A stretch of 63,844 bases of DNA, counting the filler, from Psammoneis japonica (taxonomy: Eukaryota), in NCBI GenBank assembly GCA_008632985.1. It is 5 parts of 5 records of this genome, joined end to end, with 100 filler letters (N's around TTAATTAATTAA, not from the genome) between each part and the next. Parts side by side here need not be neighbours in the genome. Positions count along the whole stretch, not along the records: positions 1 to 13,983 come from QPGO01000547.1; 4 more parts are not named here. One strand, 5' to 3'. Below the pieces are notes generated by a model, which did no database searches, was not told the origin of the DNA, and worked only from the letters and a program-made list of their open reading frames with translations. Within the stretch, counting starts at the first letter, position 1. Every line of letters starts with the position of its first letter. Positions 615 through 61,342 of the stretch are shown one piece after another. The position numbers and the translations under genes are program-made.

Positions 615-674
615 CCGCAAAACCAAGAATTGCGCAACATGGCTGAGGGCACAAAATCTCAAAGGTGCCCCCAG

Positions 675-997
675 CGAAAATGCGAAAATGCGAAAATGCG
701 AAAATGCGAAAATGNNNNNNNNNNNNNNNNNNNNNNNNNNNNNNNNNNNNNNNNNNNNNNNNNNNNNNNNNNNNNNNNNNNNNNNNNNNNNNNNNNNNNN
801 NNNNNNNNNNNNNNNNNNNNNNNNNNNNNNNNNNNNNNNNNNNNNNNNNNNNNNNNNNNNNNNNNNNNNNNNNNNNNNNNNNNNNNNNNNNNNNNNNNNN
901 NNNNNNNNNNNNNNNNNNNNNNNNNNNNNNNNNNNNNNNNNNNNNNNNNNNNGAAAATGCGAAAATGCGAAAATGCGAAAATGCGAAAATGCGAAAA
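675..997 (+). repeat. 8-bp satellite (GAAAATGC)n interrupted by an assembly gap
   Basis: Perfect GAAAATGC units on both sides of the N run. Confidence 0.95.
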
Positions 998-2357
998 TCG
1001 CACAAGATGATGTGACGCACCAAATTCCGTTGAGAGAATCCAGGCTCCAACCTCAGAGATGATCGCATTTTTCAGCTTGGCGAAACGCCATTGTCCGTGT
1101 CATTTTGCGCGCCACTTTGAGCCGCGAGCCAGAAAACACCCCCAAAAACTGTTCTGCAGGGCGGGGTGCGCTGAGCCTGCATGGATTTGGGTTGTTCCAG
1201 GCTGCGCAGAAAGCAGACAGGCCAAAAACTCCGGCGCACCCACTCAAACACATTCGACAGCTGGCTGACAACAGATCGGTTGACTGGCTTCCCAAAACGC
1301 CGCTTGTGTCGCGCCCTTCTCCAGCTGCTCTCCGGCTGGCGCCATGGAGCGCAGCCGCTCAATTTAGATTGTGTCTGCAACGTCATTTGCAACAAACGTG
1401 ACTGCCNNNNNNNNNNNNNNNNNNNNNNNNNNNNNNNNNNNNNNNNNNNNNNNNNNNNNNNNNNNNNNNNNNNNNNNNNNNNNNNNNNNNNNNNNNNCCC
1501 CCCCCCCCCCCCCCCCCACTTTCCTGCCACGCTCTGCCACAGTCTTCCTGCAAAAATCCTCTGGCAGCTGAGGGCACAAATTGGCCAAGGACAGTGCAAA
1601 AGTCACAAAGGCACAAAGGGCACAAAGTGGCCAACGGCAAAAAACCAGGAAGGGCAAAAAAGGCGGCCATTGGCACAAAATCAAAAAGGGCTCAAAGTGG
1701 TTGAGGGCACAAAATCATGAATGGAAAAATGGCGGTGGCAGCGGCAGCAGTTGTGTCACCCTTGTGGCTCAAGTTGTTGTCACAGTTGCCCTCACGTTGT
1801 CGTTGTTGCATTTTGCAAAAAAGCCAAGATGCGGCGCACGAGGGGACAAATCGGTGAAGTCCGTCTCTGCGCCATGGGGAAGCCCATTTGTCCCCCATGA
1901 TGCGCTCATCCTCGGCTCTGCACGTTGGGGGTCACAGCATGTTGGGTGAGCATGTCAACCTCTCTCCCCCAACACACCATTCCCGCGCCATGCACGCTTT
2001 TGTTGACACGCCACAGAAGCCATTTTGCTTGACCTGGTTTCATCACAAGTGTTCTTCAATCCACAGCTGCAGGTGATGTCTCTTTTGTTGCTGATGTGTC
2101 CGCTCCACGTCAGCTCCATTTTTGTGGGCGCATGCCTCCTCGTCTCCTTCCCTTGTGTTGCCGTCCACACCGCCGGCGCTGCACTCCATTCTGCCCAAAC
2201 ACACGTGTTGTTTGAAGCAACAAACCCTGCTCTGCTTTCCCAAGGCATTTGCGGCAGTTGCCCCATTGGCTTTGCTCCAGCGCCCCTGCCCCAAACACTT
2301 GCACCACAAATCTTGTTTGATCAGCGCCCTTGCCAGTGGGCTGTGTCCCTTCAGTGC

Positions 2358-2962
2358 ACGGAAATGCGCAAACGCACAAAAGCGCAAATGCACAAATGCG
2401 CAAACGCGTGAATGCAGAAGTGCGAAAGTGCAAAAGTGCGGAAACGCGGAAACGCGAAAATGCGGAAATGTGGAAATGCAAAAATGCGGAAACGCGGAAA
2501 TGCGAAAATGCGGAAGTGCGGAAATGCAAAAATGCGGAAGTGCGGAAATGCGAAAATGCGCGAATGCGTGAGTGCAGAAGTGCGAAAATGCGGAAATGCG
2601 AAAATGCGAAAATGCAAAAATGCAAAAATGCGAAAATGCGGAAATGCGGAAATGCGGAAATGCAAAAATGCAAAAACGCGGAAATGCGAAAATGCGAAAA
2701 TGTGAAAATGCAGAAATGTGGAAATGCGAAAATGCGGAAATGCGGAAATGCGGAAGTGCGGAAAAGCGGAAGTGCGGAGGTGCGGAAATGCGGAAATGTG
2801 GAAATGCAAAAATGCCCAAACGCGGAAATGCGGAAATGCGAAAATGCAGAAATGTGGAAATGTGGAAATGCGGAAATGCAAAAATGCAAAAATGCAAAAT
2901 GCAGAAATGCGGGAATGCAGAAAAACACGAAAACACGGAAATGCGGAAATGCAAAAATGCAA
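2358..2962 (+). repeat. Degenerate 8-bp satellite of the same family
   Basis: ~600 bp of GAAAATGC/GGAAATGC/GAAACGCG/CAAAAATG variants; gives spurious (K/R)CGNAEM ORFs. Confidence 0.93.
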
Positions 2963-3189
2963 AAAGGGTCAGGCTTGGGTTTGGGGTTGGGGTTTGTTTC
3001 TGAATCTTTGGCACATGACATCTTGTCTGTCACACGACAATGTTTTTTGTGCGCTGGTTTCACAAAATGCAAAAAGGGTCAGGCTTGGGTTTGGGGTTGG
3101 GGTTTGTTTCTGAATCTTTGGCACATGACATCTTGTCTGTCAACATGACAATGTTTTTTGTGCGCTGGTTTCACGACAAGGTGTTGTGT

Positions 3190-3680
3190 TCAGCAAATGT
3201 CCATCAAAGTGCTGTGGCGGTGTTTCAAGCTCAAGACAAAATTGGTTGGAGACAGATTTTCAACGGGCGCTTCTCATCTTTGTGGAACAAAGCTCAGCCA
3301 TCATGCTCGCTGTCAACTGGATTGTGCCACTCCTTGTTGAACATGGAAAAGCACTCAGATTGGGCCGCTGCGATTGGCAGTTTTGTGTGGCCCCAATGGC
3401 GGGAACACTCCATGATGACACCGCACATGGGCACAATTTGGGCACAAGAAAGTCCTCACAGCACTGTGATGCCAAGGCAGGAGCATGAGCCATCCACTCC
3501 AAGGCAGACAATTGCTCAGCTTGCAGTTGATCCGAGTTGCTCAGTTCAGCGGAGGAGCACCTCACTTGTTCGACCCACAGACTGTGCAGCTGGTTGGCCA
3601 TGGCTCAACCAATGTTCAAGCCAAGCATTCGTGAAGCCTGGCGTCTGGCAGTGAGGGGCACTGGCACCATTGCAATGAGC
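3190..3680 (+). mobile_element. 3' fragment of a non-LTR (LINE-like) retrotransposon ORF, decayed
   Basis: QDKIGWRQIFNGRFSSLW...DWAAAIGSFVWPQW...EEHLTCSTHRLCSWLAMAQPMFKPSIREA aligns by eye to the C-terminus of the element at 54.6-55.1 kb. Confidence 0.75.
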
Positions 3681-4213
3681 AATTCACGCCGCAGTCTCTG
3701 GGAATTTGACAAGATGCGACAGAAAATGTTGGCGCGGCAATCAACAGGTTCCAGAAAATTGCAAGGTTGGTCTTCGCCAAATGCCACATTCAGCGACAGT
3801 GTGGCTGCATTCACTCAGTCCCCTCGAATGGACGCCAGCTTCGGCAGCATCAACTCGACCCTGTGCATCCGTGTTGCCGGCCCTTTCCAGGCCAGCTGAA
3901 AAAAACCATGTCTCGGGGTGGGCAAAACCATCTCCATTTTGGAAACGGAAAATCCCGGTTCGTCTGCAAGACGAAGCAATCAGCGGCGCCACAACTGCAC
4001 TGGGCTCGGGTGTTTTGCCCACCACTGGAATCACGCTCCTCACAAAATGTGACAAATTGACTCCCGGAGCCTCGGTCCGGGCATCAACTTGGCAAGAACG
4101 TCAGCGAGATTCATCTCGCCATCCTCCCAAGCAATGCGCACAATGCCAGCAGCCTGCACCTCACGCACCCGGTGACAAGCAATGGCGCTGTGCTTCTTTT
4201 TGAGTGTCGACTC

Positions 4214-4352
4214 GGGCTGGGGTTGGGGCTGGGGTTGGGGCTGGGGCTGGGTTGGGGTTTGGGGTTGGGGTCAGGGTTGGGGCTGGGGTTGGGGTCAGGG
4301 CTGGGGTTGGGGTTGGCGCTGGGGTTGGGATCAGGGTTGGGATTGGGGTCAG
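4214..4352 (+). repeat. Interstitial telomere-like array derived from (TTAGGG)n, every unit lacking TA
   Basis: 6-bp periodic array of TTGGGG, TCAGGG and CTGGGG units with no TTAGGG left. Short relatives lie near 2965, 3075, 11293 and 13960. Confidence 0.8.
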
Positions 4353-4696
4353 CACACACGTCTTTTTGGCTCGGTTTTGGGTCAGGGCAAGAGTCTGTGC
4401 ATCGTCCGTCAATGTTTTTGACCACAAAATGGCGACGTGCGATGCACAGACTGCCCGTTTGGGACCTTTGCTGGACCCATTTCGGTTGACGGGTGATGGA
4501 CAGACTGTGCCATTTTGGGACCAACGCTGGACCCATTTCGACCTGCAACTGGAGCTGCCAATGATTTTTGGGATTGGGTGCCAGTTTGCTGTCCACAACT
4601 GCAGTGTCATTTTGGCAAGTCAGCTGAAACACTGGGTGCACAAACACAGACGAATTTCAACATGAGCGGCGATTGTGGTTTCACACAATTGATGTT

Positions 4697-7600
4697 TCAG
4701 CCCGTCTTTCTCTTGCTCTGATTTCTCGCAGAGGAACGGGGCGTGTTCGCAACGACCCTCCTCGTTTTTTTTGACTTTGGTGGAGCAGCAAGGCCCTCTG
4801 TCTTTCTTTTCTTTCCGGAATCTGCTTTTTTCTTCTTGGCTTTGGCTTCCTGTCTCATCTTTTCCAAAAACAGATGACCCTCTGCCCGCTCTTGTGCTGT
4901 GGCAAATGTTTTGATGGTTGTCATTGCTGGGTCCCTTTCCTCCAAGGCAGCGACAGCTGCCTTTTGATTGCTGACGACAGGGAGTTCTGGTGCATCAGAT
5001 CCGTCGCTGACAACGCTCGCTGTTTCAGACTCTTGGTCCTGTTCGATTGCCTTTGGAAATCCTTTTGTGTCTCCATCATTGTTGTGCTCTTTGTTCTGGG
5101 ACAATTCTTTCCACACCTTTCCGCTCTGCTTTGCTTGTTGGCTTTGTCATCACGACCGTTCTTGTGAGAATTTTTTTCTGACGATCTCCCTCCCGTTTTT
5201 GCCTGCTTGCTCTCTTGTTGCCATCACCACGTTTCCCATCATCGTTGTTGCCTGACGACTCTGCATCCTCCTGCTCAACTTCCTCCTGGCTTTTCTCTTC
5301 ATCTTTGCTTCCCTCTTCTGCCTGGCTTTCCTCTCCAGCTTCAGACTGATCACCCTCTGAGGATTCGTGTGAATTCAGAGATGCAACGGGATCCTCAGTG
5401 CTGTCTTGTGATCCCTGCATCTCACCGTCGTCGTCTTGGACTGGAAAGGAGTCATGGTCTTGCACATTTCCAGAAATGTCCTGCCCAGCACAGGGTGAGC
5501 CATTTGGGTCCAGTGCTGGGTCCACATTGTCCAAGTCTTGTTTGTCTGCACAGCGTTTGAAAGGTTTGACGTGAGAAACGAAGACAGTGCCATTTGGGAC
5601 CATGGCTGGCTCCATTTCGCCTTTGCTCACCTGATTGAAATGCTTCGCATGACAATGTCTTCTGTCCCTCTTCAGACTTGCCTTCTTCTGCCTTCTGGCC
5701 ATCACCATGGCCCTTGTTGCACAGATGCAAGGTTGTCTTTTTCCGGCTTGTCGCTGGCTGCATCTTGTGCTGCATCACCATTCGTCGCATCTTCCTGAAT
5801 CTTGGTTCCTTCTGGGACTTTGCATTCATTGTCTTGAAAACTTTCAGAAATGATGCCTTGCTCATGTTCAACCGACTCGGCATTTTCTGCATCATGTTCA
5901 GAATCAACGTGTGAGGTGCAGACTGTGTCATTTTGGGACCATCGCTGGCTCCATTTCGCCCCACTTGCCTGACCGACCAGAAGCTCCTGTCGTTTCATTC
6001 GTCTTGACACTGTCAACTCAGGATTTTCCTGCTGCCTCGCAGCTGATGGCTGAGATTTGGCAGTCTGCTTGGAATCTCCAGTTTTTTGAGAATGATCGAT
6101 GTCCTGGCCTCTGTTGAACCCACCTTTGTTGAGCTCCAAGTGTTCACATCGGGAGGTGTTGAAATGACTCTGGTGGATGAGTGTTGCCTCGATCATTGCA
6201 CACTCTTCCGCTGATTTTGGGTCTTTGTGGGACTCATCAAAGTTGTTGCAGTCGCTGCAACTTTGATCCTCGTCAAACACAAATTTCCCTGCAACCTTGC
6301 CCCACAGTTTCTCTTTTTCTAATTGGGCGACAGTTCGAAACTTGATTTTGGAAGGGTCGGCATCTGAGCAATCAAACTCGTCATCGGTGTTGTGTCCCCT
6401 GTGGTGGATTTCATCCTTCAGCCGCTTTGGAGTCACATTTTTGTTCAGCTGCATGTGAGCAATGGCACAAGCAACAGCGCCACACTGTTTGTTCAACCCA
6501 GTGAATTCTGCCTTCAACTTGTGCGTCGCCTCTTCATTGACATCCGTTGCATCGATGGTCTTTGACAGGCACCTGCCAACCAACTGGCACATGCTCGAAT
6601 TCTTGTTCCACTTGCCAATTGATCATCCGCCAAAAAGGGGTTCGTGTGCCGGCATCGCTTTGGCTGCAGATCTCATGCCTTTTCGTAAATGCTGTTTTCA
6701 ACAAGAACGATGTCCAGCACCAACTCAGACAGGCTGCCACAAACGCTCCTTCCAACCTTGTGCTTTGTGCAAAAGGTGTTTGAATGTAAGGTCTTGATTG
6801 TTTCCTCTGCCACAAGGTTCCCTTTGTTGTCCACAAATTTAGCTTGCCCCTCCTCCTTGTCCATCACGGCGAATCTTCTGACAGAAACACTCAAGCTCTT
6901 TTCCTTGCTCAACCACTCACAGACAAATGCCGCCATTGTGGGAATGTTTGCCATGATGTCTGGGTCAGCCTTGCTTTTTCTCACCAACTCTCTGCATGAC
7001 TTCAAAGTGTCCTTGTCAAACATTGCTGCTTGTGCATCAGCGTCTTCTTGAGGTGGGTTCCCATGGTGAAAAATTGCACACTGTGACATGTGACAAAAAG
7101 TCACGGTCCACACAACTGTCAAGGATTGAAGCCTTGACATTTGTGCCTGTGATGGCAGCAAAAATTGCCTGTGAGAAGGGTGGTCAGGATCGCTGCAATT
7201 TGCGCTCTGACGTTGTTGCACTGGCTGACAAACAGCGCAAATGAGTCACATGTTTCTGGGTCACATGCTGCCTTGCAGCCAAAAGAAGCAATCTTTGCCT
7301 TTAGAGCCACCATGATGCACTGGTCTGCCAAATCAAACTCCGCATCACCATGGACAGTCGGGTCAGGGAGAAATGTTGTCAAAACTGCGCGATGATGTGT
7401 TTGAGCTCTTGAGAGCTCACCCAGCTTGAGACATCATGGCTCCAAGTCACCATGTTTGTCGCGAACTCTTCCTGATGCTGTGTCTGTGACTTGGCTTCGT
7501 CGTTGAATTGCCGTGGCCATCGTGCTTCAGAGGCAACATTCTTGACAAGAAAAAGTGTCTCTGGGACACTGACAGGATTTGATCAAGATTGACCAACTCG

Positions 7601-8197
7601 ACCAAATCCGACCCAACGACTTGAAAAATGCGACACCCAGAATTCGAGCCCAGGTCATCAAGTGACCGGTTGCCAACCAAACCATTCACCGCACAGTTCA
7701 AGTCGAGAGGCTTTTTGAACAAATGCTGCCATGACAGCTGAGAATTGGGTGTGAGACAAGACAGAGTGTTGAACAGCATCAACAGGTTCTAGAACTGTGA
7801 GATGTTGCGCCACTGGGGCCATCAAACAAGCAACAGTGGACCAATCGCCAACAGCAAATGAACTGCCCATGTCCGTGACAGCATGTCAGCATTCATTCAA
7901 CTCAGTCCATTCGACTTGCACGTCCCAGCCTTTGGTTGATGTGTTTTCATCCCAGGTGAGAAACGCGCACACGGAGGTGAGACGTTTCGTCTGTCCCTTT
8001 TCCGTCGCCGTGCTTTTTGTGCGAGCAAATCTGACTGGACTTTCCCCTGATTTTTCGTTTCTTCTTTCCACAGACATGTTTATTTTGAAAAGCCAGCCAT
8101 TGTTCTCATTGGTTGAAGGGTGCGTGCAAGAAAAGCGCTGTCTCAAAAGCGGCATTTTTTGGAGTGAAGCTGACAGCCATCTGCTCGTTGTTGTCAT
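4697..8197 (-). pseudogene. Decayed large ORF of unknown (probably TE) origin
   Basis: Chain of overlapping minus-strand ORFs (7886-8197, 6673-7221, 5702-6592, 5076-5708, 4697-5116) ending in an acidic then basic tail; no family motif recognised. Confidence 0.4.
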
Positions 8198-8617
8198 TTG
8201 AGAGACTGTCCCACTGTTTCTTTCACCGAATCTGACTGCTTTGAAAGAATGTGTGCATCATTCATTGTGTAAAGAGCTCATGCCAAAAAAGAACGGCGTT
8301 CTAACTCTGTTGTTTGCATGAGAAAAATCGGGGGAACTGACTTCGCACGTGATTTTTTGCGCGATCGGCCATTTCAAAGATCGACTGATTTGTCGACCTG
8401 TGTGGGACACTTGAGTGAACAAAACAACAGGATTGAAACAGTGGCATCAAAGTTCAATGTGTGTCCAGTTGTCATGTGATTTGACATGCCTGGGCAGAGT
8501 TGAAGATGAAATGTTGACAAAATTTCACCACTCAAAATGACTGGTTCTATCTTAGAATAAAACAAAATGGCTGCAACACTGGGACATCGCTGATGGCATT
8601 GTTCTGCTTTACAATGA

Positions 8618-9241
8618 TGAAACTGTCACACTTGCATCTGAGATTCTTTGTCCTCACACACCCTCAAAACCGAACACATGACGATTCTCTTGTCGGTGGC
8701 GAAATCTGATGTTGTCGCGCAACCCAAAAGCGTCGTCCATGACGACTCAAAGTGCGGACGATGCATTGTGAGAATCACAGCAACGTGTCATAGAAACACT
8801 CTTCATTGTCAGCATCTGGTGTCAAGCAGATGGAGCAGCACGTTGATGAGAATCCCACTTCGCAAGCTGAGGAAGAGAGAAAGAGGCATCAAAAATGTCA
8901 TGAGCAAAAAGGCTGTCCACAAGGCACAACAAAAAACAAAGATCAAATTTTCAACCACATCATCGCATTGAGCGTTGTCTTGTTGACCTGTCTCGGCATT
9001 CTTGCCTTCTCAGTCACAACATCCGTTGGTGCAAGAATGGACGAGTTCATGGTGACGGCATGGTGCCATTTTCGGTTTGTGCAAATTGTGGTTTGTGGTT
9101 CGAGACATGGAAAAACATGTTTTTGCTGTCATGGAGCTCGTTTTTTACTAAGATTTTTGGCACCAAATGTGCGCATCATGTAGAAACATGTAGAAAACCT
9201 CGTGATGTGTCCAAAAGTTTCTCACCCAGGATGAAAACACA
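8618..9241 (+). repeat. Dispersed direct repeat, copy B (less mutated)
   Basis: Matches 1-614 and keeps TA at 8791, 9146, 9149 and 9191 where copy A has CA/TG. Confidence 0.92.
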
Positions 9242-9319
9242 TCGGTCGTCCTCCCAGGAGCACGCCTGCCAGTCTCAGTCGTCATGTGCCCGTCATCGGC
9301 CGTTGCGGCATGGGCATCA

Positions 9320-11260
9320 CATCGGTGATTGACTGTTTGGTCAGGGAATTCCACGTCGTGTGTCCTCAAGTCTAGGACAGGGTCGTTGTTCCCAGTGCCA
9401 ACAGGAACCCCGTCACCATCTCGCTTGCGTGCAATGACCCTAGCATGAGTCAGCTTGCCTCCTCGTGGTGACATGACTTGAGCTGTGAGACATTCATCTG
9501 GCCCTTCCGGGGCACACTCATCAGCTTCCAGTTTGGAAGCGTTGGGTTCCGCGGGTTCAACAGCATTGTCCCATTCGTCCATGAAGTCGTCAGGGAGTTC
9601 AGGGAAGTCAGCACTGGCACCCTTTTCTGGAATGCTGAGCCGTTCGATCAAAGCTTGATTGACCGATGCAAGATCCATCTGGATCGCCGGAGTTTTAAGG
9701 TCATCCTCCGGCACTGCCCATGCATCCTTCCAAATGATGGGTTTGCCTGATTCTGGCAAAACAATGAGTGCCACATTGTCAGCGCAGTTGTCAGCTGCTC
9801 CAAGCCAACGGCCGGTGCACTTCTTTTCGTGTGGGAGCTCCGCCACAGGCACGCAGCGACAAACAGGTTGACACCAATCAAAGAGAGAGAGGGAAGAGAT
9901 GTCGGGTGTCGAACCTGTCACCTCCTCTTCTGGGACTTGTCCTCCCATGTCCAATGTGCTGGCCACAATCATGCGTCGGACATCACACATCCATTTGGCG
10001 CCACAGGACCAAAGTCGCCTGTGAGCGCCAGCCCGGCATAGAGTCACACGGACTCTTTTCTTCAACTCACGAATGGATGCCTCGGCTGGGTTCTGCCAGG
10101 GGCTGCAAGGGGTGGACACCTCCTGGTGTGTCCTGCATTCCTTGCAGATCTCTTTGGTCTGGCCTTCCGCCATTTCCGGCGTGCCATCCGACACAAGGAC
10201 CTGTGGTGCACCAACGTCATGCACAAATGACGTGACAGCATCCGGGTGGTCCTGTTTCCTCTTCCAAGGATGGAACCCATCACACCCTCTTCCGTTGGCA
10301 AATGCGCTTCCTCCTGTCTCACCATGTGTCGATTTGACCTTCAAAAACATCTGGCTGGAGCAGAGTCATCCCTTGATCGCAGGGAACTTGAGCCAAGGGG
10401 CTTTCTTCCGGACTTTCCGTTCGGATGGTGTGCAGAAATTGCGGACCCCTGCCTGGTTCGTCACCCCAAGGGTGTTCTCAGCGGCCGCAAGGCCAGTGTT
10501 CCACCTTTTAGAGAGCATCTCCGGCATGACAGTCGACGCACGACTCAAGGTCGACAGTGCATGCACCCGTCTCCGCTCGGCACAATCCGGGTGGACATCC
10601 AGGTCACGTCAGTCATGTGGCCCGTCTCCCTCAGTGTCGCTGTGGGAGACATTCACCTGAGCAACCAGGCGGCGACACAGTGGGTCGTCATCATCAGCAT
10701 CCACAATGACGCTCTCGTTGTGACAGGCCGTTGTGTGTGAATGAATGGAAGCGACACACCTGGTCGCACTCGTCATCGTCGACCATCCATCCGACTTTGC
10801 TGATCCTTGGCGCACACTGGCGCACACACGCGCTTCCTCCTTTTGCGCCATGGCATCAGCAGAAGGCTCCCATCTCAGGGGCGATGCAAGTTCCAGCCGG
10901 GGGAGGTTCTCCAGATCCTCCTTTGTTGGCTTGTGTGAATCAAAGACTGAAGCAACACCTCTCATTCGCAGCGGCACCCTGATCTTCGAGTCAGGAAAAG
11001 AGACAGAGTGCGCGCCAGTCGGGTCAAACTGGCGAGGGGCATCGTGGACAATCAGCCCAATTTTCTCACAGTTGGTTGGGGCACAGGAGGGTGTTGGTCA
11101 CCTTGTCCCCGAGAAACACAGCCTCGTGGACTGGCAGCAGGCACGGTTGTCCATCAGTTGGATCAGCCCACACGGCAGCAGCCACGCAAACAGGAACATT
11201 TTCCATTGGTGCGTGCTCTTCGGAGCAGGGGTGAACCATGACAGTTCTGTCAACGTCAGA
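9320..11260 (-). mobile_element. Ty1/Copia LTR retrotransposon pol fragment (diatom CoDi-like), including integrase; hypermutated
   Basis: Integrase core DVGAPQVLVSDG...STPCSPWQNPAEASIRELKKR; downstream ARVIARKRDGDGVPVGTGNNDPVLDLRTHDVEFPD; upstream HPCSEEHAPMENVPV...LLCPNQL and PLRMRGVASVFDSHKPT, resembling CoDi pol motifs as I recall them. Confidence 0.85.
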
Positions 11261-13309
11261 GTGCATCACAAAATTGGACCCAACAGCACGGTTTGGGTCA
11301 GGGTTTGGGCAATGGGCAGTGGGCAAAGGCCAAAAAGAAAGGCCAAAGGGAAAGCGAAGCCAAGAAGGGAAAAGGAAACGGAAAAGGGGACAAGGAAGTG
11401 GGAAAGAGGACCACAAATGACATCAAATGCAAATTAATTTAGCTGGTTTTGCAGAAGAAAACACAGATGAATGAACTGCAGAAAAGAGGTGCAATGTGAA
11501 AGATTCAAATGGAGGTTGGAGAGAGCAAGGAAGGAGCTGAAAAAGGAGCTGACAATTCTGAAACAACTGAAGTGTCATCGTTGGTTCCAAGGGCATTGTT
11601 TGCAAGCTGGAGCTGGTCGGTGTTTCCAAACATTTGCGTGGCTAGATGGGAAAGAACCAGACCTTCATGGCGCTCTTGATTGAGTGTCTGAACTGTTGCA
11701 TCATCTGGGCAAATGAAAAGTCTGAAGTGATGGAAGTGATTGAGGAATGTTTGTCCAAGCTCAGCTGTGGGAATGGAGGCAGCTTCTTCTGGAGAAAGCC
11801 CAATCTTGAGGCCAGTGTGGAAGAGATCTTCAAGGCAGGCTGAATCTTCAGATCCAATGGAGAAGCTGTCCAGAGCATCTAACCCACTGATGTTGCCACA
11901 AAGCTGACCAGAGACAAAGTTGTGCAAAGATGAGGCAGGGAAGAAGTGCCTTGCTGGTCCATGCAGACAGTTTGTTTCAGTGTTTCCAACGAGGGAAAAC
12001 CTGATGACAGAGCAGGGAATGGAGTCAACCACTCCTTGTTTGCAGGCTTCAAGGCAGAGCTTGAAAGGAAAGTCATGTTTCAAAGGGCACTTGGACTCCG
12101 ACTGCCAAAATGGGTGGAGAAAAGTGAAGAGCTTGGCTTGAGAAGGAGAGTCTGGACAAAGCTTCTTCTGCTTCTTCCAGAGCTTGCTGAAGCAAGAGGA
12201 GCAATTTTTTCTCATCCTCTTGTCCCATCCAGTGGCATGAACACAATCCATCCATGACATGGAAGACAAGGCCTTGTTGCAGCAGGCAGCGTGCATGTTT
12301 GCTGATGCTGTTTTTTTTTTTGTGTCAAGCGGTGTGATGTTTTGTGAAGTCGAGCATTTTGGAAGTCGTGGGACAGCTCGCACGGTCCACAAGGCATGAG
12401 ATGTGCCAGCAGAAATGCACAGGAAAGCGCGGCAGTTGCATCCGTTGAATGTGATGATGCGCCACGTCAGTGCTGTGTTGCCAAGCAATTGCCATGGGAA
12501 ACAGATGTTGTGCGAATGCAAGAATGTCCTCACATGAGTGCAACACAGTGACATGTTTTGCACACAAAAAACATGTGTGAAAAAACATGTGACGGTTGAA
12601 GGAACCGAACATGTGTTGTGCTCAATGATGTGCACAAAATGAGCGCAGTTTCAACCTTGGAATTGTCCGAATTGAGCTGGAAATTCAGCGGCAATTGAAA
12701 GGAAATTGAGTGCAAAATGATTGGCTCTGAGACAAAACAATGAGTGGCACTGAGATGAGCGCAACAGCACTGCTCTGTTGCAGCTCAAATGGAAGATGTT
12801 GCAGAAGATGGCAGCAGATGAGATTTGCTGCACGAAGCAGCAGCAACGGCGCTGCTGTCATGGCGGCAAAAGCTGTGTGTGGTGCGTGGCTGATGAGAGG
12901 AAAAAGATTCGACACACTGTCTGTTGAAGATGAAAAGAGGCGGCACAGGGACTCAGTTGAGGAGTTTGGAGGCTGAGTGGAGCAGGGGTGGGTGTTTGAC
13001 AAACGGGTTTTGGAAAACAGAGGACAGGCGTGGCTGTTGTTGTTTGTGCAGGGGGCAAGTCAAGAGACGTTCTTTCTGATGTTGGGAGCACCTTCTTTTT
13101 GGCGAAAAGAGCGGATCTTTGAGCTGCAATGTGCGGAGCACAGAAGGAAAGGGCGCGCACAAAGACAAGGCAAGAGCATCTTGCAAACTCGCTGCACGTG
13201 AAAGCACACAATTTGGTTTGCAAACTCATTGCAGAAATCTGCTTTTTGGACAAAACGGAATGTGCGCCGTCAGAGGTGCATGCAAATGCACTGCAGCCGG
13301 GAAACAAGA

Positions 13310-13815
13310 CATCCATGGACAAAAAAACATGGACAAAGTGACGCTTCCAGACAATTTTTGCATTGAGAATTTGCCAGGGAAATGACTCACCCACAGACAA
13401 AGCAACACAGACATTTTGACACTGCCAAACAACAATTTTGTGAGCAAATGGGGAGGGAAATGAAACACCCATGGACAAACTGACACAGACATTGTGACAC
13501 CGCCAAACAAAAATTTTGTGAGCAAATGGGGAGGGAAATGACACATCCATGGACAAAAAGACACAGACATTCAGACACCGCCAAACAAAAATTTTGTAAG
13601 CACATGGGAAGGTAAGTGACACACCCACGGACAAACTAACAAAGACAAACTGACACCGCCAAACAAAAATTTTGTGAGCATGTGAAGAGGGAAATGACAC
13701 ACCCACGGACAAACTAACAAAAACAAACTGACACCGCCAAACAAAAATTTTGTGAGCAAATGAGGAGGGAAATGACACACCCACGGACAAACTAACACAG
13801 ATAAACTGACACAGA
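13310..13815 (+). repeat. 78-bp minisatellite, about 6 units
   Basis: GACAC(C/T)GCCAAAC anchor at 13418, 13496, 13574, 13652 and 13730 (period 78). Confidence 0.9.
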
Positions 13816-13983: not shown

Positions 13984-14083
13984 NNNNNNNNNNNNNNNNN
14001 NNNNNNNNNNNNNNNNNNNNNNNNNNNTTAATTAATTAANNNNNNNNNNNNNNNNNNNNNNNNNNNNNNNNNNNNNNNNNNNN
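13984..14083. other. Artificial contig linker
   Basis: 44 N + TTAATTAATTAA (stops in all frames) + 44 N. Confidence 0.98.
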
Positions 14084-17000
14084 GTGATCATGACGACGAC
14101 GATGATGACGTTGATCACCTTTTGGACCCGAGGGCTGGACATGTTCTGGCTGGGTGTCAAGTGCACATGCCCGCGATTCAAAACTGGACCAGAGACCTGA
14201 ATCGCTCCAATTGGGCAGGGCATTGGGATCTCCCGGTGCTCGTAGAGTCCCTTTTGTTGGGGTGATTCGGCACAGGTGCAGTCAAATCGCAACAGCATCA
14301 GTTTGTCTAAATTGATCAATGAAATGGAGGACATCATGACCCACGCCCTCGACCAGATGGTGACTTTCGACGAGAGGGGTGTTCGTTTTGAAGGTCACTG
14401 CACCATTGCGGGAAACACATTGGACTGCCTTCTCCAACAATCAGAGTGTCACAATGACAGCAATTCCATCGCTGCCACGGCACCAGACTGGCCATCTCTG
14501 TTCAATCCCATGGGGGCAATCCGAGTGGCCCAGGAAAGCCAAGTCAGGAACTGCTGTGAATCACTCCGCGAACGATGTTTCCCTTGTCTTTGAAAGCTTG
14601 CTTCATGTGATCTCGGTTCGACCGACGACACCATCGAACAAGTGGATGTTCATTCTTCAGCGCTGAAGCCAGGACTGCCATTTGTTCCAAAGCTGAGCTT
14701 GCAGTCCTGCTCTGCTGGCTGGGTTTCTCACCCCAAAAATCCTCGAGAATGCACTGAAGGACGTGATGAGTGGACCGTGCGACGTTCCCGTGCATTGCCA
14801 AACAGAACTTTCACAAGAGGAAAAGCTTTGGACCTGTTGTGGATGTGGGGTTGACCCAAAATTGTTGCCTCTGAAAGCTGCCAACACAATCCGACTCAAT
14901 GAATGGTCCAACATTGCCATCAAAACACAGTCGCACTCAAGAATCAAGGCGGTGCTTCTGTCCACTGCCATGACATGTCCGCTTCAGCATGTGGAGCACA
15001 GCGGCAGGATCAAACACCTTCTCATCCACAGCAGCAACTCCGACAACACCGACCTGGCAGAAAACGTCAATCTTGCAGTCCGACCCGATTGTGGTTTGTT
15101 CAAAGAACCCAATCTTGATGTTCTCATGACCCGGTCTTCCGAGTCAATCCAATGTCTTGTTTCACAACTGCGCACGGTTGTTGCCCACATGTGTGACAAG
15201 GAATGGCATTGCAAGCTTGTTGCTTCGAAATCTTCCGCCGGCAGTGGTGCACCCCGGGAATGGCCAAACGTGTTGACAGATTATTTGCAGTTTCCAACGA
15301 CTCTTTCCGACGCCCTCGAGTTCATGTCCCGGAACCAACAGTCCACTTGTTTCAAGCACTGCTCCCATGCTGTTGTGAGAGAATGTGAGTTTTTTGTCAT
15401 TCCCTGTCCTCCACCAAATCGATGCACCACTGTCTCAATTCCGCAACCGTGGTCGCACCATGGACAGATGACCGCCGGATCGACACCACACCACACCGAT
15501 CCGCCATTTGTTGACAGACAGACTGCTCCATCATCGATGCCCTGTGTGTCACACTGACCACTGCCAAATCGAAACTTCGCTGTCTCGATGGGGCAACCGT
15601 GGCTGCACCATGGACAGACGACCGCCAGATCGATGCCACACTGCACCGATCCGGCATTTGTCGACGGACAGACTGCTGCATCATCGATGCGCTGTGCATG
15701 TCGCACCGATTTGTTGGCTGGCACTCATCATTTCCAATAATTTCTTTCGCTGACACCCCTGTTGTTCCTTTCATTTTCATCAATTGATTCACTGTTGTGA
15801 TGTTTTTGGCGTGGTCAACAGCCCAGTTGGTTGAGCTGTGCTTTGGTCCTTGAGATGCCAGTGACAGAGGGTGGAAAAAAAGTCCAAGCACAAACCCATG
15901 TTGGTTTGTGGAGGGTTTTCTCAACCAACTGAGGAAAAAGATTGTGGGTGGTGGTTCAAATGTGGATTTCCATCATCCATTGTCTGACTGCATGCGTCGA
16001 AAGATTTTCTCTGATGTGTTTGTCAGTCGCTGTCCTGTTGTTGCTGAAGGTGCAGACCGCTCCCCTCCCGCTGTTTGGAACACCCAAGGTTCCAGGATGA
16101 TGCGTCACTCGGGAGAGTTTAAATCCATGCACATTCCTCCAGGCGGGACTCCGCCTGCTCTCGCCCCAGATTCCTTGGTGGGTCCCCTCAGCAGCGACCG
16201 TGATTTGCTGAATTTGAGACAATTTGTCAACCGCGACATGCTCTGGGCTTGTCTTGTGGACAAAGCTCACTGTGATTTTCCCAAGCAGATCAACGTCAGT
16301 CAAATCATCGGTCGCACGGTATGTGTCGCATGTTCTCTTGTGGAAATGAGGAGGAGAAGGGCAGGGGAAAATTGGTCATGGGCCAAGCAATGAAAAGAGC
16401 ATGTGACATGAGCTTGTCTCCAGGAATTGAGCTGCTCCATTTTTTCGACTCAAAAGCAAAATGCTTGGCGTTTGTGAAGAACACCATTGGCACTCTCTGC
16501 GCAAAGAAGATTCAGGATGAAACACAACCTGAAATTGTGTTGCATCCACTTGGCATGGACAACAGCCTCCTGGCCACCTGGAGGTGCATTCTCCGCAACA
16601 GTGGAGAACCCAATGACATGTTTGGGTTTGTTCGAACTGGTCGAGACAACTCCGGCGCAGCAGTCTCTGGACCTGATGTTTTGGTCAAGGGCGGCAATTC
16701 CGACGATGAAACAAGGTTGATGGAGGAGCACATTCAAGGAGGTGACAATGTGTCCATGCTGAAGTTGGCCGCAAAGGGTGTTCTCACGGATGCAGTTTTG
16801 GAAAAACTGAGTGTGATCCGAACCTCTTGGACAAACAACCACATTGATGTTGCCCGTGCCCTCAAGCAAAGGGAGTCGGACAGTTCTTGCCCTTCCCCCG
16901 CACGCAATGCCAACCAGGTTTTGCTCCGCAATCTTTGGGGCAAGCAAAGCAACGAGACTCAGTTGAAGAATGCCCAGATCTAGTTGGCGTGTGGCAGCGC

Positions 17001-20000
17001 GCCCTTTTTGTGTTTGTGTTGAAGCTGCCAGCCACCGAATCCATTCCCGAAATCATTTTTGTGCTCATGACCCACTCGACATGCCACACCAACCAACTGA
17101 TTTTCACGCAATGTCAATCTGGTTGCATGTTGAAGCAGCATGATTTTGGATTTTCATGGCAAGCCCCTCTTCCCCCACATTTTGTGAATTTTGTCACAGC
17201 CTCACAAATTTTCCATTTTGGCTTTTGTCAAACGATGCTGCAGCAGCTGGAGCAATTGACTTTTGCTTTTTTGAAAGCACGTTGATCACAAGGGAATTGT
17301 CAGATTCGACGCCGCGACCAACGACCATGATGACTGATGACACGACCCCCACATGGCTTTGTGACAAGACCTCGGTGGCCGCAAGCTCATTTGGTGAAAA
17401 CAAGCACAACCCAACAGGAACACCTAAACAGTCGTGCACAAAATCAGCTTTCCCCCAGCTTCCGATGCCTGACAACATTTCCACAGGGCACATTTTGCTT
17501 GCAACGAGCCGCTCCTGCGATGACAAAATTGTTTCTGTCGGCCAACAGATGCACGACAAGACAGGAGACTCGTTGTCCGGTTTTCAACTGCCTGGCAACA
17601 TTTCCACAGGGCACATTTTGCTTGCAACGAGCCGCTCCTGCGATGACAAAATTGTTTCTGTTGGCCAACAGATGCACAACAAGACAGGAGACTCGTTGTC
17701 CGGTTTTCAACTTTGTGTGCCCGCGGTTCGAAACCAAGCCAATGATGTCACCCAGACGCAGATGGCGTGGTCTCGGCAAGCGCTTTGGGGTCTCGTCGAT
17801 TGCATTGAAAGATCATCAATGTCCAGCTTGGCATTTTACCGCCCAGCTCTCATTTTGTCCCTGGTTGCTGACAACGGAAATCCTCATTGTTTTTTTTTTT
17901 CCGTCACCCCAGATTGACATGGAAGCCTGTCAATTCCTTGTTTTTTGTTCACTCGACAGTTCTGCGACTTTGTGCAATGCTCCAAGCTAAATTGGTGTGG
18001 GACCGCACCGATTTCTCCATGGAGTGGAAATGATGCCATCCATGTCCCCTTGGTTTTTTCCAAATTGGCTGCCCCGCTTTCTTCTCCAGCTCCAACCCCG
18101 CTTTCTTCTCCGGCTCCAAGCAATGACGGTGCTCTGCAGCACCGATTTTGCTTTTGTCAAACCAACGTGTCACACGTCTCCTCGATCCCACTTTTTGCGA
18201 TTGATTTGCTGCGTCACTGTTTTTTTCACTTGAAGTCATGAGATGCCACTTGTCTTGTTGAAGCAGGAAGATGTCGGATTTTTGAGGGAACCTGTTTGCC
18301 ACTTGTCCACCATCATGTCACACTTCTCACAATTTCCAACATTTGGCTTTTCACAACACGAACGGATTTGCCGCATGTCTTGTCTCACGGACACTGACCC
18401 CTCTTGGAAAAGGGAACTCAGTGAAGTTTCTGAGTTGGTTCATGAGTTGACAGCAAATCGAACAACCATGAGGCCCGGCTTCATGAAAACCGCACTTCTT
18501 GGAAGCAATGAGGTTGTTGAGGAAGGCAAGATTTGTGAAATGATGAAAGACCTCATGGGTCTTGGAACAAAGTCTTCATGGGGCCTGTGTGGAACACAAG
18601 TCCAAATGCTCTGACGACGAATGCAAAGCATGTCTCGCTCAGGTCTCCTTGTCAATTTGCATTGCGTGCCAACTGACCAAACATGCTTTGAACACAGGGG
18701 AGGTTCTGTTTGGTTCTTTGTTTGGACAGATTCACCCGCATCTTGTCAAATTTTTTTTCCCAGCGGTCCTTTTTTTGGGAAGGTGAGATTCTTTGTCATG
18801 CGCCACGTTTTCATTTCCTTGGAGGCAATCCTGACTTCTTTTTTGCACCCCCTCATTTAGACAGAAAATGTCTCTGAACAAAAGCAACATCTTTTTCTGC
18901 AACACCCAGCATGCTGAATCTCAAGATTCAGCCGAAGATTCATCCGGGGCCAATGTCTCCAAAAAAAGGAAAGCCGCCAGTGACGAGGTGGTGTCTGACT
19001 TGTTGTTTTGCAAAAAGGCCATGGTGGAGGAAACTTGCCAAGAGTGTGTCTCATTGGCGATGGAGTTTGATCTTTCCGACTGCAACATCCTCACAAGCCG
19101 CTCTTCCAACGAGAACGTCTGTCACTTCTTCCTCTTCAGCAACTCTGACTCTGACGATGACTCCGCCGTTGAAGACACGCGCTGCAGTGTGCAAATTGTT
19201 GCCTCTCTCGGGACGCCAACTCCTCACAGATCAAGTCGGTCCCACCACAGATCAAAAAAATTTTGGGAGCCCATTTTCCAGAATCTTTCTTCAACTGTGC
19301 TTCAATTTGCAAAAGGCCAGTCAAACTCCACTCCCCATCGATTTGGCCCTTGTTTTGCCCACCAATTTTCCGTTGCAAGCTGCAAGCTTCTTCGTGATGC
19401 TGTTGATGCCGGCAGCACCATGGAGCCGCCAGAAGCAACCAGCGGCACTGCGGTGCATGGGCTTCCCAGTCGCAGTGACTCAAAACGGCACCCGCTGCCT
19501 CTGCCAGCCGATGTTGATGAACCCAAGTGGGAGCCTGGGGGCATCCTCGTCACTCAAAAGGGTGCGGCTCTTGCCACCACAAATGCCTTGACCGGTGCAC
19601 GGGGGTCAGAAGTGGGTGGGATTGACGGAATTTGTTCATTCCATGCTTCCAGCTGGTGGTTCGACAACAACAAAAAGCACTTCAGGGATGCCAGCAGACA
19701 AAGGGATCTCCTGGTTGAATTCGAGTTGTTCGCCAAAGCTTGCCCCACCGTTTTGCCAGCACCGACCATGCAGAAAATGATGCTTGAATCATGGACAACC
19801 AAGCACAAGGAGCCCGTTGCAGCAGAAAAATTGTCCATTCTGCCCGCTCAGCCAAACGATGGCCAGATTGAGGACATGTTGGACCAGGATGTTGAAGCCA
19901 CTGGACACCCCGCCGATGGCAACGTTTCAGATGAGGATTGTGTTCCGGAAGCCGCTGATTCCCTGCACATCCTGGATGAATGGGAAGCCCTTGGGCGTGG

Positions 20001-23000
20001 TTTCAAGGGCAGTCAATGTTCTCAGCTAGTCACGAAAGAAAAGTTTGGCAACATCTCAACAGGTCACATTGTCACAAAAACATGCCACCTGCGTGATCAT
20101 GACGACGACGATGATGACGTCGATCACCTTTTGGACCCGAGGGCTGGACATGTTCTGGCTGGGTGTCAAGTGCACATGCCCGCGATTCAAAACTGGACCA
20201 GAGACCTGAATCGCTCCAATTGGGGCAGGGCATTTGGGAGTCTCCCGGTGCTCGTAGAGTCCCTTTTGTTGGGTGATTCGGCACAGGTGCAGTCAAATCG
20301 CAACAGCATCAGTTTGTCTAAATTGATCAATGAAATGGAGGACATCATGACCCACGCCCTCGACCAGATGGTGACTTTTGACGAGAGGGGTGTTCGTTTT
20401 GAAGGTCACTGCACCATTGCGGGAAACACATTGGACTGCCTTCTCCAACAATCAGAGTGTCACAATGACAGCGATTCCATCGCTGCCACGGCACCAGACT
20501 GGCCATCTCTGTTCAATCCCATGGGGGCAATCCGAGTGGCCCAGGAAAGCCAAGTCAGGAACTGCTGTGAATCACTCCGTGAACGATGTTTCCCTTGTCT
20601 TTGAAAGCTTGCTTCATGTGATCTCGGTTCGACCGACGACACCATCGAACAAGTGGATGTTCATTCCTTCAGCGCTGAAGCCAGGACTGCCATTTGTTCC
20701 AAAGCTGAGCTTGCAGTCCTGCTCTGCTGGCTGGGTTTCTTCACCCCAAAAATCCTCGAGAATGCACTGAAGGACGTGATGAGTGGACCGTGCGACGTTC
20801 CCGTGCATTGCCAAACAGAACTTTCACAAGAGGAAAAGCTTTGGACCTGTTGTGGATGTGGGGTTGACCCAAAATTGTTGCCTCTGAAAGCTGCCAACAC
20901 AATCCGTCTCAATGAATGGTCCAACATTGCCATCAAAACACAGTCGCACTCAAGAATCAAGGCGGTGCTTCTGTCCACTGCCATGACATGTCTGCTTCAG
21001 CATGTGGAGCACAGCGGCAGGATCAAACACCTTCTCATCCACAGCAGCAACTCCGACAACACCGACCTGGCAGAAAACGTCAATCTTGCAGTCTGACCCG
21101 ATTGTGGTTTGTTCAAAGAACCCAATCTTGATGTTCTCATGACCCGGTCTTCCGAGTCAATCCAATGTCTTGTTTCACAACTGCGCACGGTTGTTGCCCA
21201 CATGTGTGACAAGGAATGGCATTGCAAGCTTGTTGCTTCGAAATCTTCCGCCGGCAGTGGTGCACCCCGGGAATGGCCAAACGTGTTGACAGATTTTTTG
21301 CAGTTTCCAACGACTCTTTCCGACGCCCTCGAGTTCATGTCCCGGAACCAACAGCCCACTTGTTTCAAGCACTGCTCCCATGCTGTTGTGAGAGAATGTG
21401 AGTTTTTTGTCATTCCCTGTCCTCCACCAAATCGATGCACCACTGTCTCAATTCCACAACCGTGGTCGCACCATGGACAGATGACCGCCGGATCGACACC
21501 ACACCACACCGATCCGCCATTTGTTGACAGACAGACTGCTCCATCATCGATGCCCTGTGTGTCACACCGACCACTGCCAAATCGAAACTTCGCTGTCTCG
21601 ATGGGGCAACCGTGGCTGCACCATGGACAGACGACCGCCAGATCGATGCCACACTGCACCGATCCGGCATTTGTCGATGGACAGACCGCTGCATCATCGA
21701 TGCGCTGTGCATGTCGCACCGATTTGTTGGCTGGCACTCATCATTTCCAATTAATTTCTTTCGCTGACACCCCTGTTGTTCCTTTCATTTTCATCAATTG
21801 ATTCACTGTTGTGATGTTTTTGGCATGGTCAACAGCCCAGTTGGTTGAGCTGTGCTTTGGTCCTTGAGATGCCAGTGACAGAGGGTGGAAAAAAAGTCCA
21901 AGCACAAACCCATGTTGGTTTGTGGAGGGTTTTCTCAACCAACTGAGGAAAAAGATTGTGGGTGGTGGTTCAAATGTGGATTTCCATCATCCATTGTCTG
22001 ACTGCATGCGTTGAAAGATTTTCTCTGATGTGTTTGTCAGTCGCTGTCCTGTTGTTGCTGAAGGTGCAGACCGCTCCCCTCCCGCTGTTTGGAACACCCA
22101 AGGTTCCAGGATGATGCGTCACTCGGGAGAGTTTAAATCCATGCACATTCCTCCAGGCGGGACTCCGCCTGCTCTCGCCCCAGATTCCTTGGTGGGTCCC
22201 CTCAGCAGCGACCGTGATTTGCTGAATTTGAGACAATTTGTCAACCGCGACATGCTCTGGGCTTGTCTTGTGGACAAAGCTCACTGTGATTTTCCCAAGC
22301 AGATCAACGTCAGTCAAATCATCGTCGCACGGTGTGTCGCATGTTCTCTTGTGGAAATGAGGAGGGAGAAGGGCAGGGGAAAATTGGTCATGGGCCAAGC
22401 AATGAAAAGAGCATGTGACATGAGCTTGTCTCCAGGAATTGAGCTGCTCCATTTTTTCGACTCAAAAGCAAAATGCTTGGCGTTTGTGAAGAACACCATT
22501 GGCACTCTCTGCGCAAAGAAGATTCAGGATGAAACACAACCTGAAATTGTGTTGCATCCACTTGGCATGGACAACAGCCTCCTGGCCACCTGGAGGTGCA
22601 TTCTCCGCAACAGTGGAGAACCCAATGACATGTTTGGGTTTGTTCGAACTGGTCGAGACAACTCCGGCGCAGCAGTCTCTGGACCTGATGTTTTGGTCAA
22701 GGGCGGCAATTCCGACGATGAAACAAGGTTGATGGAGGAGCACATTCAAGGAGGAGACAATGTGTCCATGCTGAAGTTGGCCGCAAAGGGTGTTCTCACG
22801 GATGCAGTTTTGGAAAAACTGAGTGTGATCCGAACCTCTTGGACAAACAACCACATTGATGTTGCCCGTGCCCTCAAGCAAAGGGAGTCGGACAGTTCTT
22901 GCCCTTCCCCCGCACGCAATGCCAACCAGGTTTTGCTCCGCAATCTTTGGGGCAAGCAAAGCAACGAGACTCAGTTGAAGAATGCCCAGATCTAGTTGGC

Positions 23001-27952: not shown

Positions 27953-28052
27953 NNNNNNNNNNNNNNNNNNNNNNNNNNNNNNNNNNNNNNNNNNNNTTAA
28001 TTAATTAANNNNNNNNNNNNNNNNNNNNNNNNNNNNNNNNNNNNNNNNNNNN
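27953..28052. other. Artificial contig linker
   Basis: 44 N + TTAATTAATTAA + 44 N. Confidence 0.98.
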
Positions 28053-38422: not shown

Positions 38423-38689
38423 GCGAAACTTGCATTTTCGACTCTGCGTTGCCTCTGTGTTGGTCTTCGTGATGTGGCAAAATAGTCGTACTCGTATTTG
38501 ATATGTTGGCGTTTGAGAGTATTACGTGATATTGAGAAATAGCAGCTAAAGTCAACATTCTGTATCTTTGAATTGAAAACGAAATGAGTCTTTTTGCTCA
38601 ACGCTGTCTACCAAGCCGCACACTATCAATAGCATGGATTTAACACCCCGAAAGGATAAACCAATCACAGAAACCGAGCTAGCATTATC

Positions 38690-40135: not shown

Positions 40136-40292
40136 AGAGTCCGGTTTGTCGAAGTGCATGAGCTTGCCGACATGTCGATAGAGCTTGGCTTGTTCTATCA
40201 TTACTCTCATTTTTTAAAGAAACTCAAATGCACATTGACAAAGGACCTGGCAAAGTGATCGGCAACGTCAGAAAACGCCTTGGTTGCATCGT

Positions 40293-41479: not shown

Positions 41480-41825
41480 GGTGTCGAGAGTCATTCAGTG
41501 TTCAGATGAACTTCCACCTCTTTTCATTGGTTGCTTGGCGTTGCGTTCGCTCTCCACTCACTTGCACGACATGACGGTCCACGCAGATTGATGAGATGAT
41601 TCATTCATGGCCGCCGCCTGATGTTGCGGGTTTTTCATTTCATTCGGGTCGCGTCGTCGCGCGCTGTCTGTCCATCGTGAGTCTGCATGCGCGCTCGACC
41701 GTTTTAGCGCGCGCTTGCGCACACTCCTGAAGGGCCGGGTGCGACGAACGATGCGAATCGCGACCGTGACGAACCAGCGAAATCAACGCACCATGGACCA
41801 TGCTCTTTTGCTTTGCTCAGATGGT

Positions 41826-41925
41826 NNNNNNNNNNNNNNNNNNNNNNNNNNNNNNNNNNNNNNNNNNNNTTAATTAATTAANNNNNNNNNNNNNNNNNNN
41901 NNNNNNNNNNNNNNNNNNNNNNNNN
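41826..41925. other. Artificial contig linker
   Basis: 44 N + TTAATTAATTAA + 44 N. Confidence 0.98.
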
Positions 41926-42035
41926 GGAGAAATGAATGCGCTTGATGAAAACGACAGTTGGGTTGAATTTGACGATACAGACTTTTGTGAAGGAATAGGA
42001 AAGATTGACTTGTCAGCTTTTTGATAGTCAGAACG

Positions 42036-61334: not shown

Positions 61335-61342
61335 ATGAGGCG

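Follow-up and report, generated by a model that had tools for sequence, protein, structure and literature searches.

The window analysed here, a stretch of 63,844 nucleotides from the genome of Psammoneis japonica (GenBank assembly GCA_008632985.1), carries a telomere-like array of hexamers that directly adjoins a truncated Ty1/copia gene and lies inside a long span of DNA devoid of the dinucleotide TA (Table 1). On the plus strand the array reads GGG followed by 23 hexamer-type units, in a unit list that was checked against the window: 7 whole units of TTGGGG, 6 of CTGGGG and 2 of TCAGGG, the variants CTGGG, TTTGGGG, TTGGCG and TTGGGA (twice), and 2 imperfect units of the TCAGGG type, one a TCAGGG with an extra A before it and the other a terminal TCAG. 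Sorted by class, 12 units are of the TT type, 7 of the CT type and 4 of the TCA type. Neither TTAGGG nor TGAGGG is found among them, and TCGGGG is absent as well; between the TT-type units, with TG at positions 2-3, and the TCA-type units, with CA there, neither TTAGGG nor TCGGGG is thus seen as an intermediate. The preliminary description had reported TTGGGG and TCAGGG units in the absence of TTAGGG, and the unit count bears this out. All variants at positions 2-3 are transitions that lack TA, with no variant that keeps it, and the remaining substitutions are few (2 G to A and 1 G to C in about 138 sites). This spectrum of TA-less variants without TGAGGG points to a filter specific for TA. 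The array is thus hexameric, of the general shape YYRGGG, non-terminal and free of the canonical TTAGGG unit.

Table 1. Features at and around the telomere-like array; positions count along the window.
Feature	Position	Strand	Remarks
TA-free span around the array	1365..6320		No TA in any context over 4955 bases; CG largely kept
Short telomere-like run TTGGGTTTGGGGTTGGGG, with GGGTCAGG before it	2975..2992	+	In copy 1 of a duplicated 110-base unit beside the 8-base satellite
Short telomere-like run, repeat of the 2975-2992 run	3085..3102	+	In the second copy of the 110-base unit
Ty1/copia polyprotein, C-terminal 57 residues (1313-1369 of about 1370)	4043..4213	-	5'-truncated exactly at the array
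Telomere-like hexamer array	4214..4352	+	139 bases; 23 units; G-rich strand on the plus strand; no TA
Isolated TTGGGTCAGGG	4377..4387	+	25 bases right of the array
Repeat copy 2 (copy 1 at 1-617)	8618..9244	+	89% identity; positive control within the window for the lost-TA signature
Copia polyprotein residues 11-733 (N-terminal half)	9244..11281	-	tblastn with four full-length relatives
Non-coding 78-base satellite, partly converted	13299..13812	+	CTAAC beside CTGAC and GTAAGC beside GTGAGC in different units

Tandem Repeats Finder describes the array as 22.7 copies of period 6 (75% matches, score 144) and, slightly better, as 7.6 copies of period 18 (79% matches, score 165), and its first 30 bases are a perfect alternation of CTGGGGTTGGGG. 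When the two-unit pattern YTGGGGYTGGGG was sought with at most one mismatch, 20 matches were obtained in the window against 1.23 expected and a maximum of 4 in 100 shuffles, 15 of the 20 falling within 4211-4348. The order of the unit types is at chance at lags 1-6 (permutation P 0.10-0.96); the unit types are thus interspersed, which argues against a 12- or 18-base higher-order repeat and is neutral between the competing readings of the array's origin. A true terminal telomere was considered and is ruled out, the site being internal, with more than 4 kb of other DNA on each side within the window. Short runs that combine TCAGG with TTGGGG are also present at 2975, 3085, 4377 and 11293. As to the surroundings of these runs, an 8-base satellite (GAAATGCR-like) occupies three places in the window (674-714, 953-998 and 2359-2965, the last being a long array of about 75 units), and this long array ends in the 110-base unit, duplicated at 2954-3174, that bears the short telomere-like run. 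Our guess is that the 8-base satellite, the 110-base units and the main array together resemble an architecture of the subtelomere type. A motif of about 55 bases is present in three copies (about 83% identity) at 4489-4543, 5569-5621 and 5907-5961, within the unexplained multi-copy DNA to the right of the array. Paired runs of 44 N with 12 bases between them occur at 13984-14083, 27953-28052, 41826-41925 and 55146-55245, about every 13.3-14 kb, and resemble regular masking rather than gaps in the assembly.

At its left edge the array meets the end of a copia gene read on the minus strand. In tblastn searches with four full-length relatives, residues 1313-1369 run from 4213 down to 4043, a stop codon follows at 4040-4042, and the homology ends exactly where the array starts, the upstream 1312 residues being absent there. 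The 58-amino-acid tail has 98 protein matches at E ≤ 0.001; all 25 matches of at least 1000 amino acids carry PF07727, and the four relatives that are named to an organism among the 98 are all diatoms (three from Epithemia clementina and one from Fragilaria crotonensis). It is by this conserved C-terminal tail that the fragment is placed in Ty1/copia, the reverse transcriptase part (RVT_2) being missing at the array locus. One conserved tyrosine of the tail is replaced by cysteine (AIAYH to AIACH), a position at which 18 of the 18 relatives printed read otherwise uniformly, and the change is the one expected for TA to TG. At the point where the homology stops, the same 18 of 18 read PESTLKKKH, so that the GGG preceding the first array unit corresponds to the complement of the conserved proline codon. 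The homology places the cut in the copia gene at residue 1313, and it is there that the array begins. In this regard, the G-rich strand of the array runs 5' to 3' away from the copia fragment, and this orientation has the geometry that would result from telomerase extending a broken 3' end finishing in GGG. Interstitial telomeric sequences of the short, break-repair kind sit exactly at a breakpoint, often with microhomology to the repeat, and the array, which begins at the base after the GGG of the proline codon, shares this placement.

A second piece of copia homology lies further right, and tblastn with the four full-length relatives found nothing between this N-terminal half and the C-terminal tail. 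A shared LTR was sought between the DNA downstream of the tail and the region beyond the N-terminal half, with matches at chance level only; because the two pieces have no LTR-like sequence in common, they may derive from different copies. Pfam searches of the 282 frames of at least 90 amino acids in the window revealed no transposon domain adjoining the array, and the right flank (4353-8617) matched no Pfam family.

The array is embedded in DNA from which TA has been almost completely removed. The limits of the TA-free span are the TA sites nearest to the array, and the two 500-base flanks hold no TA against about 25 and 29 expected. In the block 1-34000 as a whole, 89 TA were counted against 2064 expected, together with 3342 TG (2036 expected) and 3340 CA (2089 expected). 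Across this block and 44001-54000, in bins of 2 kb, TA stands at 0.01-0.12 of expectation, with TG and CA at 1.3-2.0. The blocks 34001-44000 and 56001-63844 keep TA at 0.5-0.7 of expectation (387 against 658 in the gene-bearing part 34001-44000) and encode ordinary gene domains, including SUMO-like, GST, aminotransferase and glycosyltransferase domains. Such near-total loss of TA, accompanied by a corresponding rise in TG and CA, is the hallmark of hypermutation of TpA to TpG/CpA. TpA conversion is saturated locally around the array and, as a consequence, the full loss of TTAGGG is to be expected there. As a separate observation, the block 44001-54000 is poor in CG as well as in TA (CG observed/expected 0.08-0.23), whereas CG in 1-34000 is at about 0.5-1.0 of expectation. 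The two decays can thus be told apart, and domains differ in which of them has struck.

Repeated DNA within the window allows the products of this process to be compared with what they replaced. Between the copies of the repeat pair 1-617 and 8618-9244, which differ in 57 mismatch columns in total, CA stands against TG at 11 dinucleotide sites, TA is kept in one copy at 4 further sites, and CG faces TG or CA at 13 sites; by our own count, about 10 transitions over the 617 aligned bases involve neither CpG nor TpA. The alternation of CA with TG can be read as the mark of a lost TA in this window. That non-coding repeats are hit, as had been proposed, is confirmed by the 8-base satellite, without a single TA over 2359-2965, and by the 78-base satellite, in which conversion is partial. 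The array had also been presented as a built-in control, a claim that does not hold, no unconverted copy of the array being present in the window; the 78-base satellite is the better unit-by-unit control. Elsewhere in the window, a segment of about 5.75 kb is duplicated in tandem (14084-19831 and 20093-25844), both copies being TA-poor and 99.0% identical to each other; of the 38 substitutions between them most are, in our reading, CG versus TG/CA and one is TA versus CA, and hence CpG decay appears to dominate once TA is exhausted.

Contigs of one sample (three runs, X1 to X3) were aligned to 3200-6200 at 80% likeness. From run X1, 472 records were placed on this interval, the array part 4207-4332 being skipped as a repeat, and no contig of runs X2 and X3 was placed on it at that likeness. 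The summed depth of the pile-up over the interval is far above that of single records, as in multi-copy DNA, and is not a measure of copy number. The contigs differ from the window at 263 places in this interval (193 transitions and 70 transversions; A>G 41, C>T 50, G>A 49 and T>C 53), and among the 40 differing places that were listed, 14 have TG or CA in the window and CG elsewhere, while 4 have CA in the window and TA elsewhere. Exact words of 26 and 30 bases across the left and right junctions of the array gave no match in two scans of a metagenome collection.

The TA sites that survive in the depleted blocks reveal a clear dependence on the flanking bases. We compared 1-34000 and 44001-54000 with the normal DNA of 34001-44000 and 56001-63844, the class YTAR comprising TTAA, CTAA/TTAG and CTAG. 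In the depleted blocks 85 of the 135 surviving TA are in YTAR, against 116 of 698 in the normal parts (odds ratio 8.5, p=1e-26), and the bias is present in each depleted block alone (54 of 89, p=9e-18; 31 of 46, p=3.5e-13). The reverse class RTAY (ATAT, GTAC and ATAC/GTAT) accounts for a single one of the 135 survivors and for 223 of 698 sites in normal DNA. Scaled for length, and by our own arithmetic, TA survival is roughly 0.2% at sites with T-A-pyrimidine on both strands, roughly 5% at sites with it on one strand and roughly 30% at sites with it on neither. The mutator thus seems to have a preference for T-A-pyrimidine and to spare YTAR. The telomeric context TTAG itself is enriched among the survivors, at 38 of the 135 compared with 68 of the 698 TA in normal DNA (odds ratio 3.6, p=1e-7), its survival being about 23% across the depleted blocks. 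TTAG is thus a spared context, and the total loss of TA in 22 units relies on the argument of local saturation; in this regard, our arithmetic from the block-average retention predicts that about 9 YTAR sites should have survived in the TA-free span 1365-6320. The retention of CTAG, TTAA and TTAG suggests that an A before G is edited more often than an A before A, and from this a TG share near 0.62-0.64 is predicted among the products at TTAG.

The findings presented above allow us to propose a model in which the array is a telomere-type repeat that was made at the copia break and was later stripped of TA by a regional mutator, a reading to which we assign a probability of roughly one half. 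The array probably began as TTAGGG-type repeats that were rewritten by the TpA process. The ancestral units would have been YTAGGG, for the most part TTAGGG, forming a short interstitial repeat of the telomere type that could have arisen where the Ty1/copia element was broken; the simplest route would be extension by telomerase of a 3' end terminating in GGG. The repeat would later have been caught in a domain-wide hypermutation of TpA to TpG/CpA that erased every TA over the surrounding 5 kb, editing of A on the G-rich strand giving TTGGGG and editing of A on the C-rich strand giving TCAGGG. These two units are indeed the single-step products of TTAGGG under a change of TA to TG or CA, as the preliminary description had pointed out. 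Its view that the array was converted stands insofar as CA and TG alternate at the 11 sites of the repeat pair and a CG ancestor is unlikely; it is weakened by the CTGGGG units, which are not a product of TpA editing, by the skewed ratio of TG to CA, by the native TTGGGG of Nitzschia inconspicua telomeres and by the TTGGGG and TCAGGG variants of proximal human telomeres. That CTGGGG needs an additional change or a CTAGGG precursor was likewise anticipated correctly, 7 of the 23 units (30%) being of the CTGGGG type and requiring a change outside TpA. Against a background of about 10 transitions involving neither CpG nor TpA over 617 bases, it is unlikely that one position of the array units was hit independently so often, and we propose that CTGGGG requires a CTAGGG-type precursor or slippage; it would have come from CTAGGG-type variants present before the conversion, or from later changes of T to C spread by slippage. 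Editing of the second adenine in TAA offers another route to CTGGGG, against which the lack of any CCAGGG unit in the array is a weak argument; the tetranucleotide excesses considered for this route are confounded by CpG decay.

The ratio of TG to CA bears on how many of the units ever held a TA. With the CT units counted it is 18:4, and the observed TG shares of 11/15 and 18/22 give p=0.27 and p=0.04 at a share of 0.62, so that the excess of TG leans in the direction predicted from the context. Taken as 4 CA among 22 TA-derived units, which are possibly not independent of each other, the probability is 0.002 at a share of 0.5, 0.006 at 0.54 and 0.04 at 0.62. Four CA products are few for 22 units derived from TA, and this fits a history in which some units had G from the start. 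The make-up of the units, their TA-free setting, the truncation and orientation at the junction, the CA/TG signature in other parts of the window and the retention of CG in the flanks can all be read directly from the DNA, whereas a TA-containing ancestor, the role of telomerase and the source of CTGGGG are our inference.

A natively G-rich, degenerate telomere repeat with TTGGGG, similar to TTAGGGTTGGGG, would account for such units if only its TTAGGG share had been converted, most of the TTGGGG being original. The telomere of Nitzschia inconspicua is reported as precisely this kind of degenerate 12-mer, in which truncated units occur alongside native TTGGGG (PMC8329260); the array has shortened and lengthened units too (CTGGG and TTTGGGG), and its TG-type units exceed the expectation over the whole range from 1:1 to 0.62. 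Against this, no consistent 12-base register is present in the array, its lag-2 autocorrelation is at chance (P 0.53), and Table S4 of the N. inconspicua study lists 734 TTGGGG with 0 CTGGGG and 0 TCAGGG (PMC8329260), all of which makes a native TTGGGG repeat a rather improbable source. We regard as similarly improbable an ordinary G-rich (YTGGGG)n microsatellite with neither telomeric history nor ancestral TA, its likeness to telomeres being coincidental and its TCAGGG units having arisen by rare double changes or through a transient TTAGGG. Microsatellites often form at rearrangement junctions, and such an origin takes the fewest parsimony steps (15 from a TTGGGG ancestor versus 29 from a TTAGGG ancestor, by our own count) and agrees with the perfect alternation over the first 30 bases. 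It would, however, demand double changes of TG to CA in the four TCAGGG-type units, where the single-step intermediate is seen in 0 of 23 units and other substitutions are as rare as stated above; moreover, runs combining TCAGG and TTGGGG recur at the four other places in the window, and the junction and its orientation fit telomerase action.

Decay of 5-methylcytosine in a CpG ancestor (TCGGGG or CCGGGG) would yield the same two products, TG and CA, and differences of CG versus TG/CA are common between repeat copies, at 13 sites in the pair beginning at 1-617 and at most of the 38 in the pair beginning at 14084-19831. But CG persists around the array, with counts of 31 in the left 500 bases (37.3 expected) and 23 in the right (31.7 expected), that is 83% and 73% retained, and lies no more than 10 bases from either end of the array, whereas it is kept in 0 of 15-22 units. 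The chance of no CG in 15 units is 3e-9 at 73% retention and still 3e-5 at 50%, so that a CpG ancestor is very unlikely and close to refuted. Hardly more credible is a coding origin, in which the array would encode a low-complexity segment of a protein from a transposon or the host, proline-rich if read on the minus strand and glycine-leucine if read on the plus strand. Several frames are open through the array, one of them, 4114-4656 on the minus strand, over 181 amino acids, and Pfam gives a weak match to Trypan_PARP at 32.1 bits, the cutoff being 100. Yet in DNA without TA only TGA can stop a frame, and chance alone should therefore produce long open frames; the 5-base unit and a TGA interrupt the frame leading on into the copia tail, intact copia relatives have unrelated sequence at the position of the array, and the 29 frames of at least 90 amino acids between 3679 and 9329 include no Pfam family above the cutoff.

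The telomere-type origin that we favour can be set against what is known of telomeres in diatoms and elsewhere. TTAGGG had been taken as the repeat of model diatoms, and this agrees with the TTAGGG-based telomeres described for T. pseudonana and P. tricornutum (PMC3622300) and for Chaetoceros socialis (PMC13538412), but N. inconspicua, with its degenerate repeat containing TTGGGG, departs from the rule. The array has in common with the N. inconspicua telomere its G-rich repeats, TTGGGG units and truncated units; the latter, in contrast, is terminal, keeps TTAGGG and has no CTGGGG or TCAGGG in the table mentioned above, while the array lacks a 12-base register. In proximal human telomeres TTGGGG and TCAGGG are reported as common variants in the absence of any TpA mutator, and TGAGGG is as common there as TCAGGG (PMC3919612). 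CTAGGG is described as a product of telomerase error in human cells (PMC3919612; PMC2764434). The human variants share TTGGGG and TCAGGG with the array and offer in CTAGGG a precursor model for CTGGGG; they differ in that TTAGGG and TGAGGG are abundant in human telomeres, whereas the array has neither TA nor TGAGGG. Short interstitial telomeric sequences inserted at sites of double-strand-break repair are documented in mammals (PMC2246262, PMC7215372, PMC8537989). Like these, the array is short (about 23 units), internal and placed exactly at a breakpoint, with its G-rich strand continuing a 3' end that finishes in GGG; unlike them, it holds no intact TTAGGG, and it comes from an apparent diatom. 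No description of short telomeric insertions at break sites in diatoms was found in the literature searched.

With regard to the mutational process, a hypermutation restricted to TpA has been described in integrated viral DNA of Bigelowiella natans (Mettrop et al., bioRxiv 10.64898/2026.01.13.699255). The two processes are alike in affecting TpA only, in giving TpG or CpA according to strand, in being regional, in striking foreign or repeated DNA and in sparing neighbouring genes. They differ in the organism, a chlorarachniophyte there and an apparent diatom here, and in the kind of evidence, which comes from mutation-accumulation lines in B. natans and from a historical footprint in our case. 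The part of the preprint that was accessible contains no mention of telomeres, satellites, flanking context or diatoms (bioRxiv 10.64898/2026.01.13.699255), although RIP is named in its discussion. TpA hypermutation of transposable elements in diatoms did not appear among the 10 best of 36 matches of a full-text literature search. RIP of ascomycete fungi introduces domain-wide, dinucleotide-specific transitions into repeated DNA, non-coding DNA included, turning CpA into TpA by C to T changes. It resembles the process considered here in its domain-wide, dinucleotide-specific hits on repeats, including non-coding ones, but runs in the opposite direction, since RIP makes TpA from CpA by C to T whereas here TpA is destroyed by A to G chemistry, and no dependence on duplication is apparent in the window.

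The preliminary description had also raised the question of how real telomeres would be protected from such a mutator, and the dependence on flanking bases provides part of the answer. Telomerase renews distal repeats; together with the poor quality of TTAG as a substrate, this means that only stranded or proximal telomere repeats should decay. We tentatively suggest, as a possibility that we consider less probable than not, that the sparing of YTAR renders TTAGGG telomeres several-fold less mutable than transposon DNA, the array being an erased fossil from a saturated domain. From the context bias, TTGGGG and TCAGGG would be predicted to rise from the tip inward in real telomeres, at a rate per site below that of neighbouring transposons.

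The array taken alone is a modest corollary of the TpA process known from B. natans, and what is new here is the geometry of the junction and the context rule. The sparing of YTAR and erasure of RTAY narrow the search for the enzyme to one with a preference for T-A-pyrimidine. If the array did originate from TTAGGG, the TpA process would act on any DNA within a marked domain and not on transposon genes alone, and repeats made by telomerase would lose their identity once they become internal. Should the reduced mutability of TTAGGG prove true, this would be the first case in which the motif of a telomere fits, or is sheltered from, a mutator serving genome defence.
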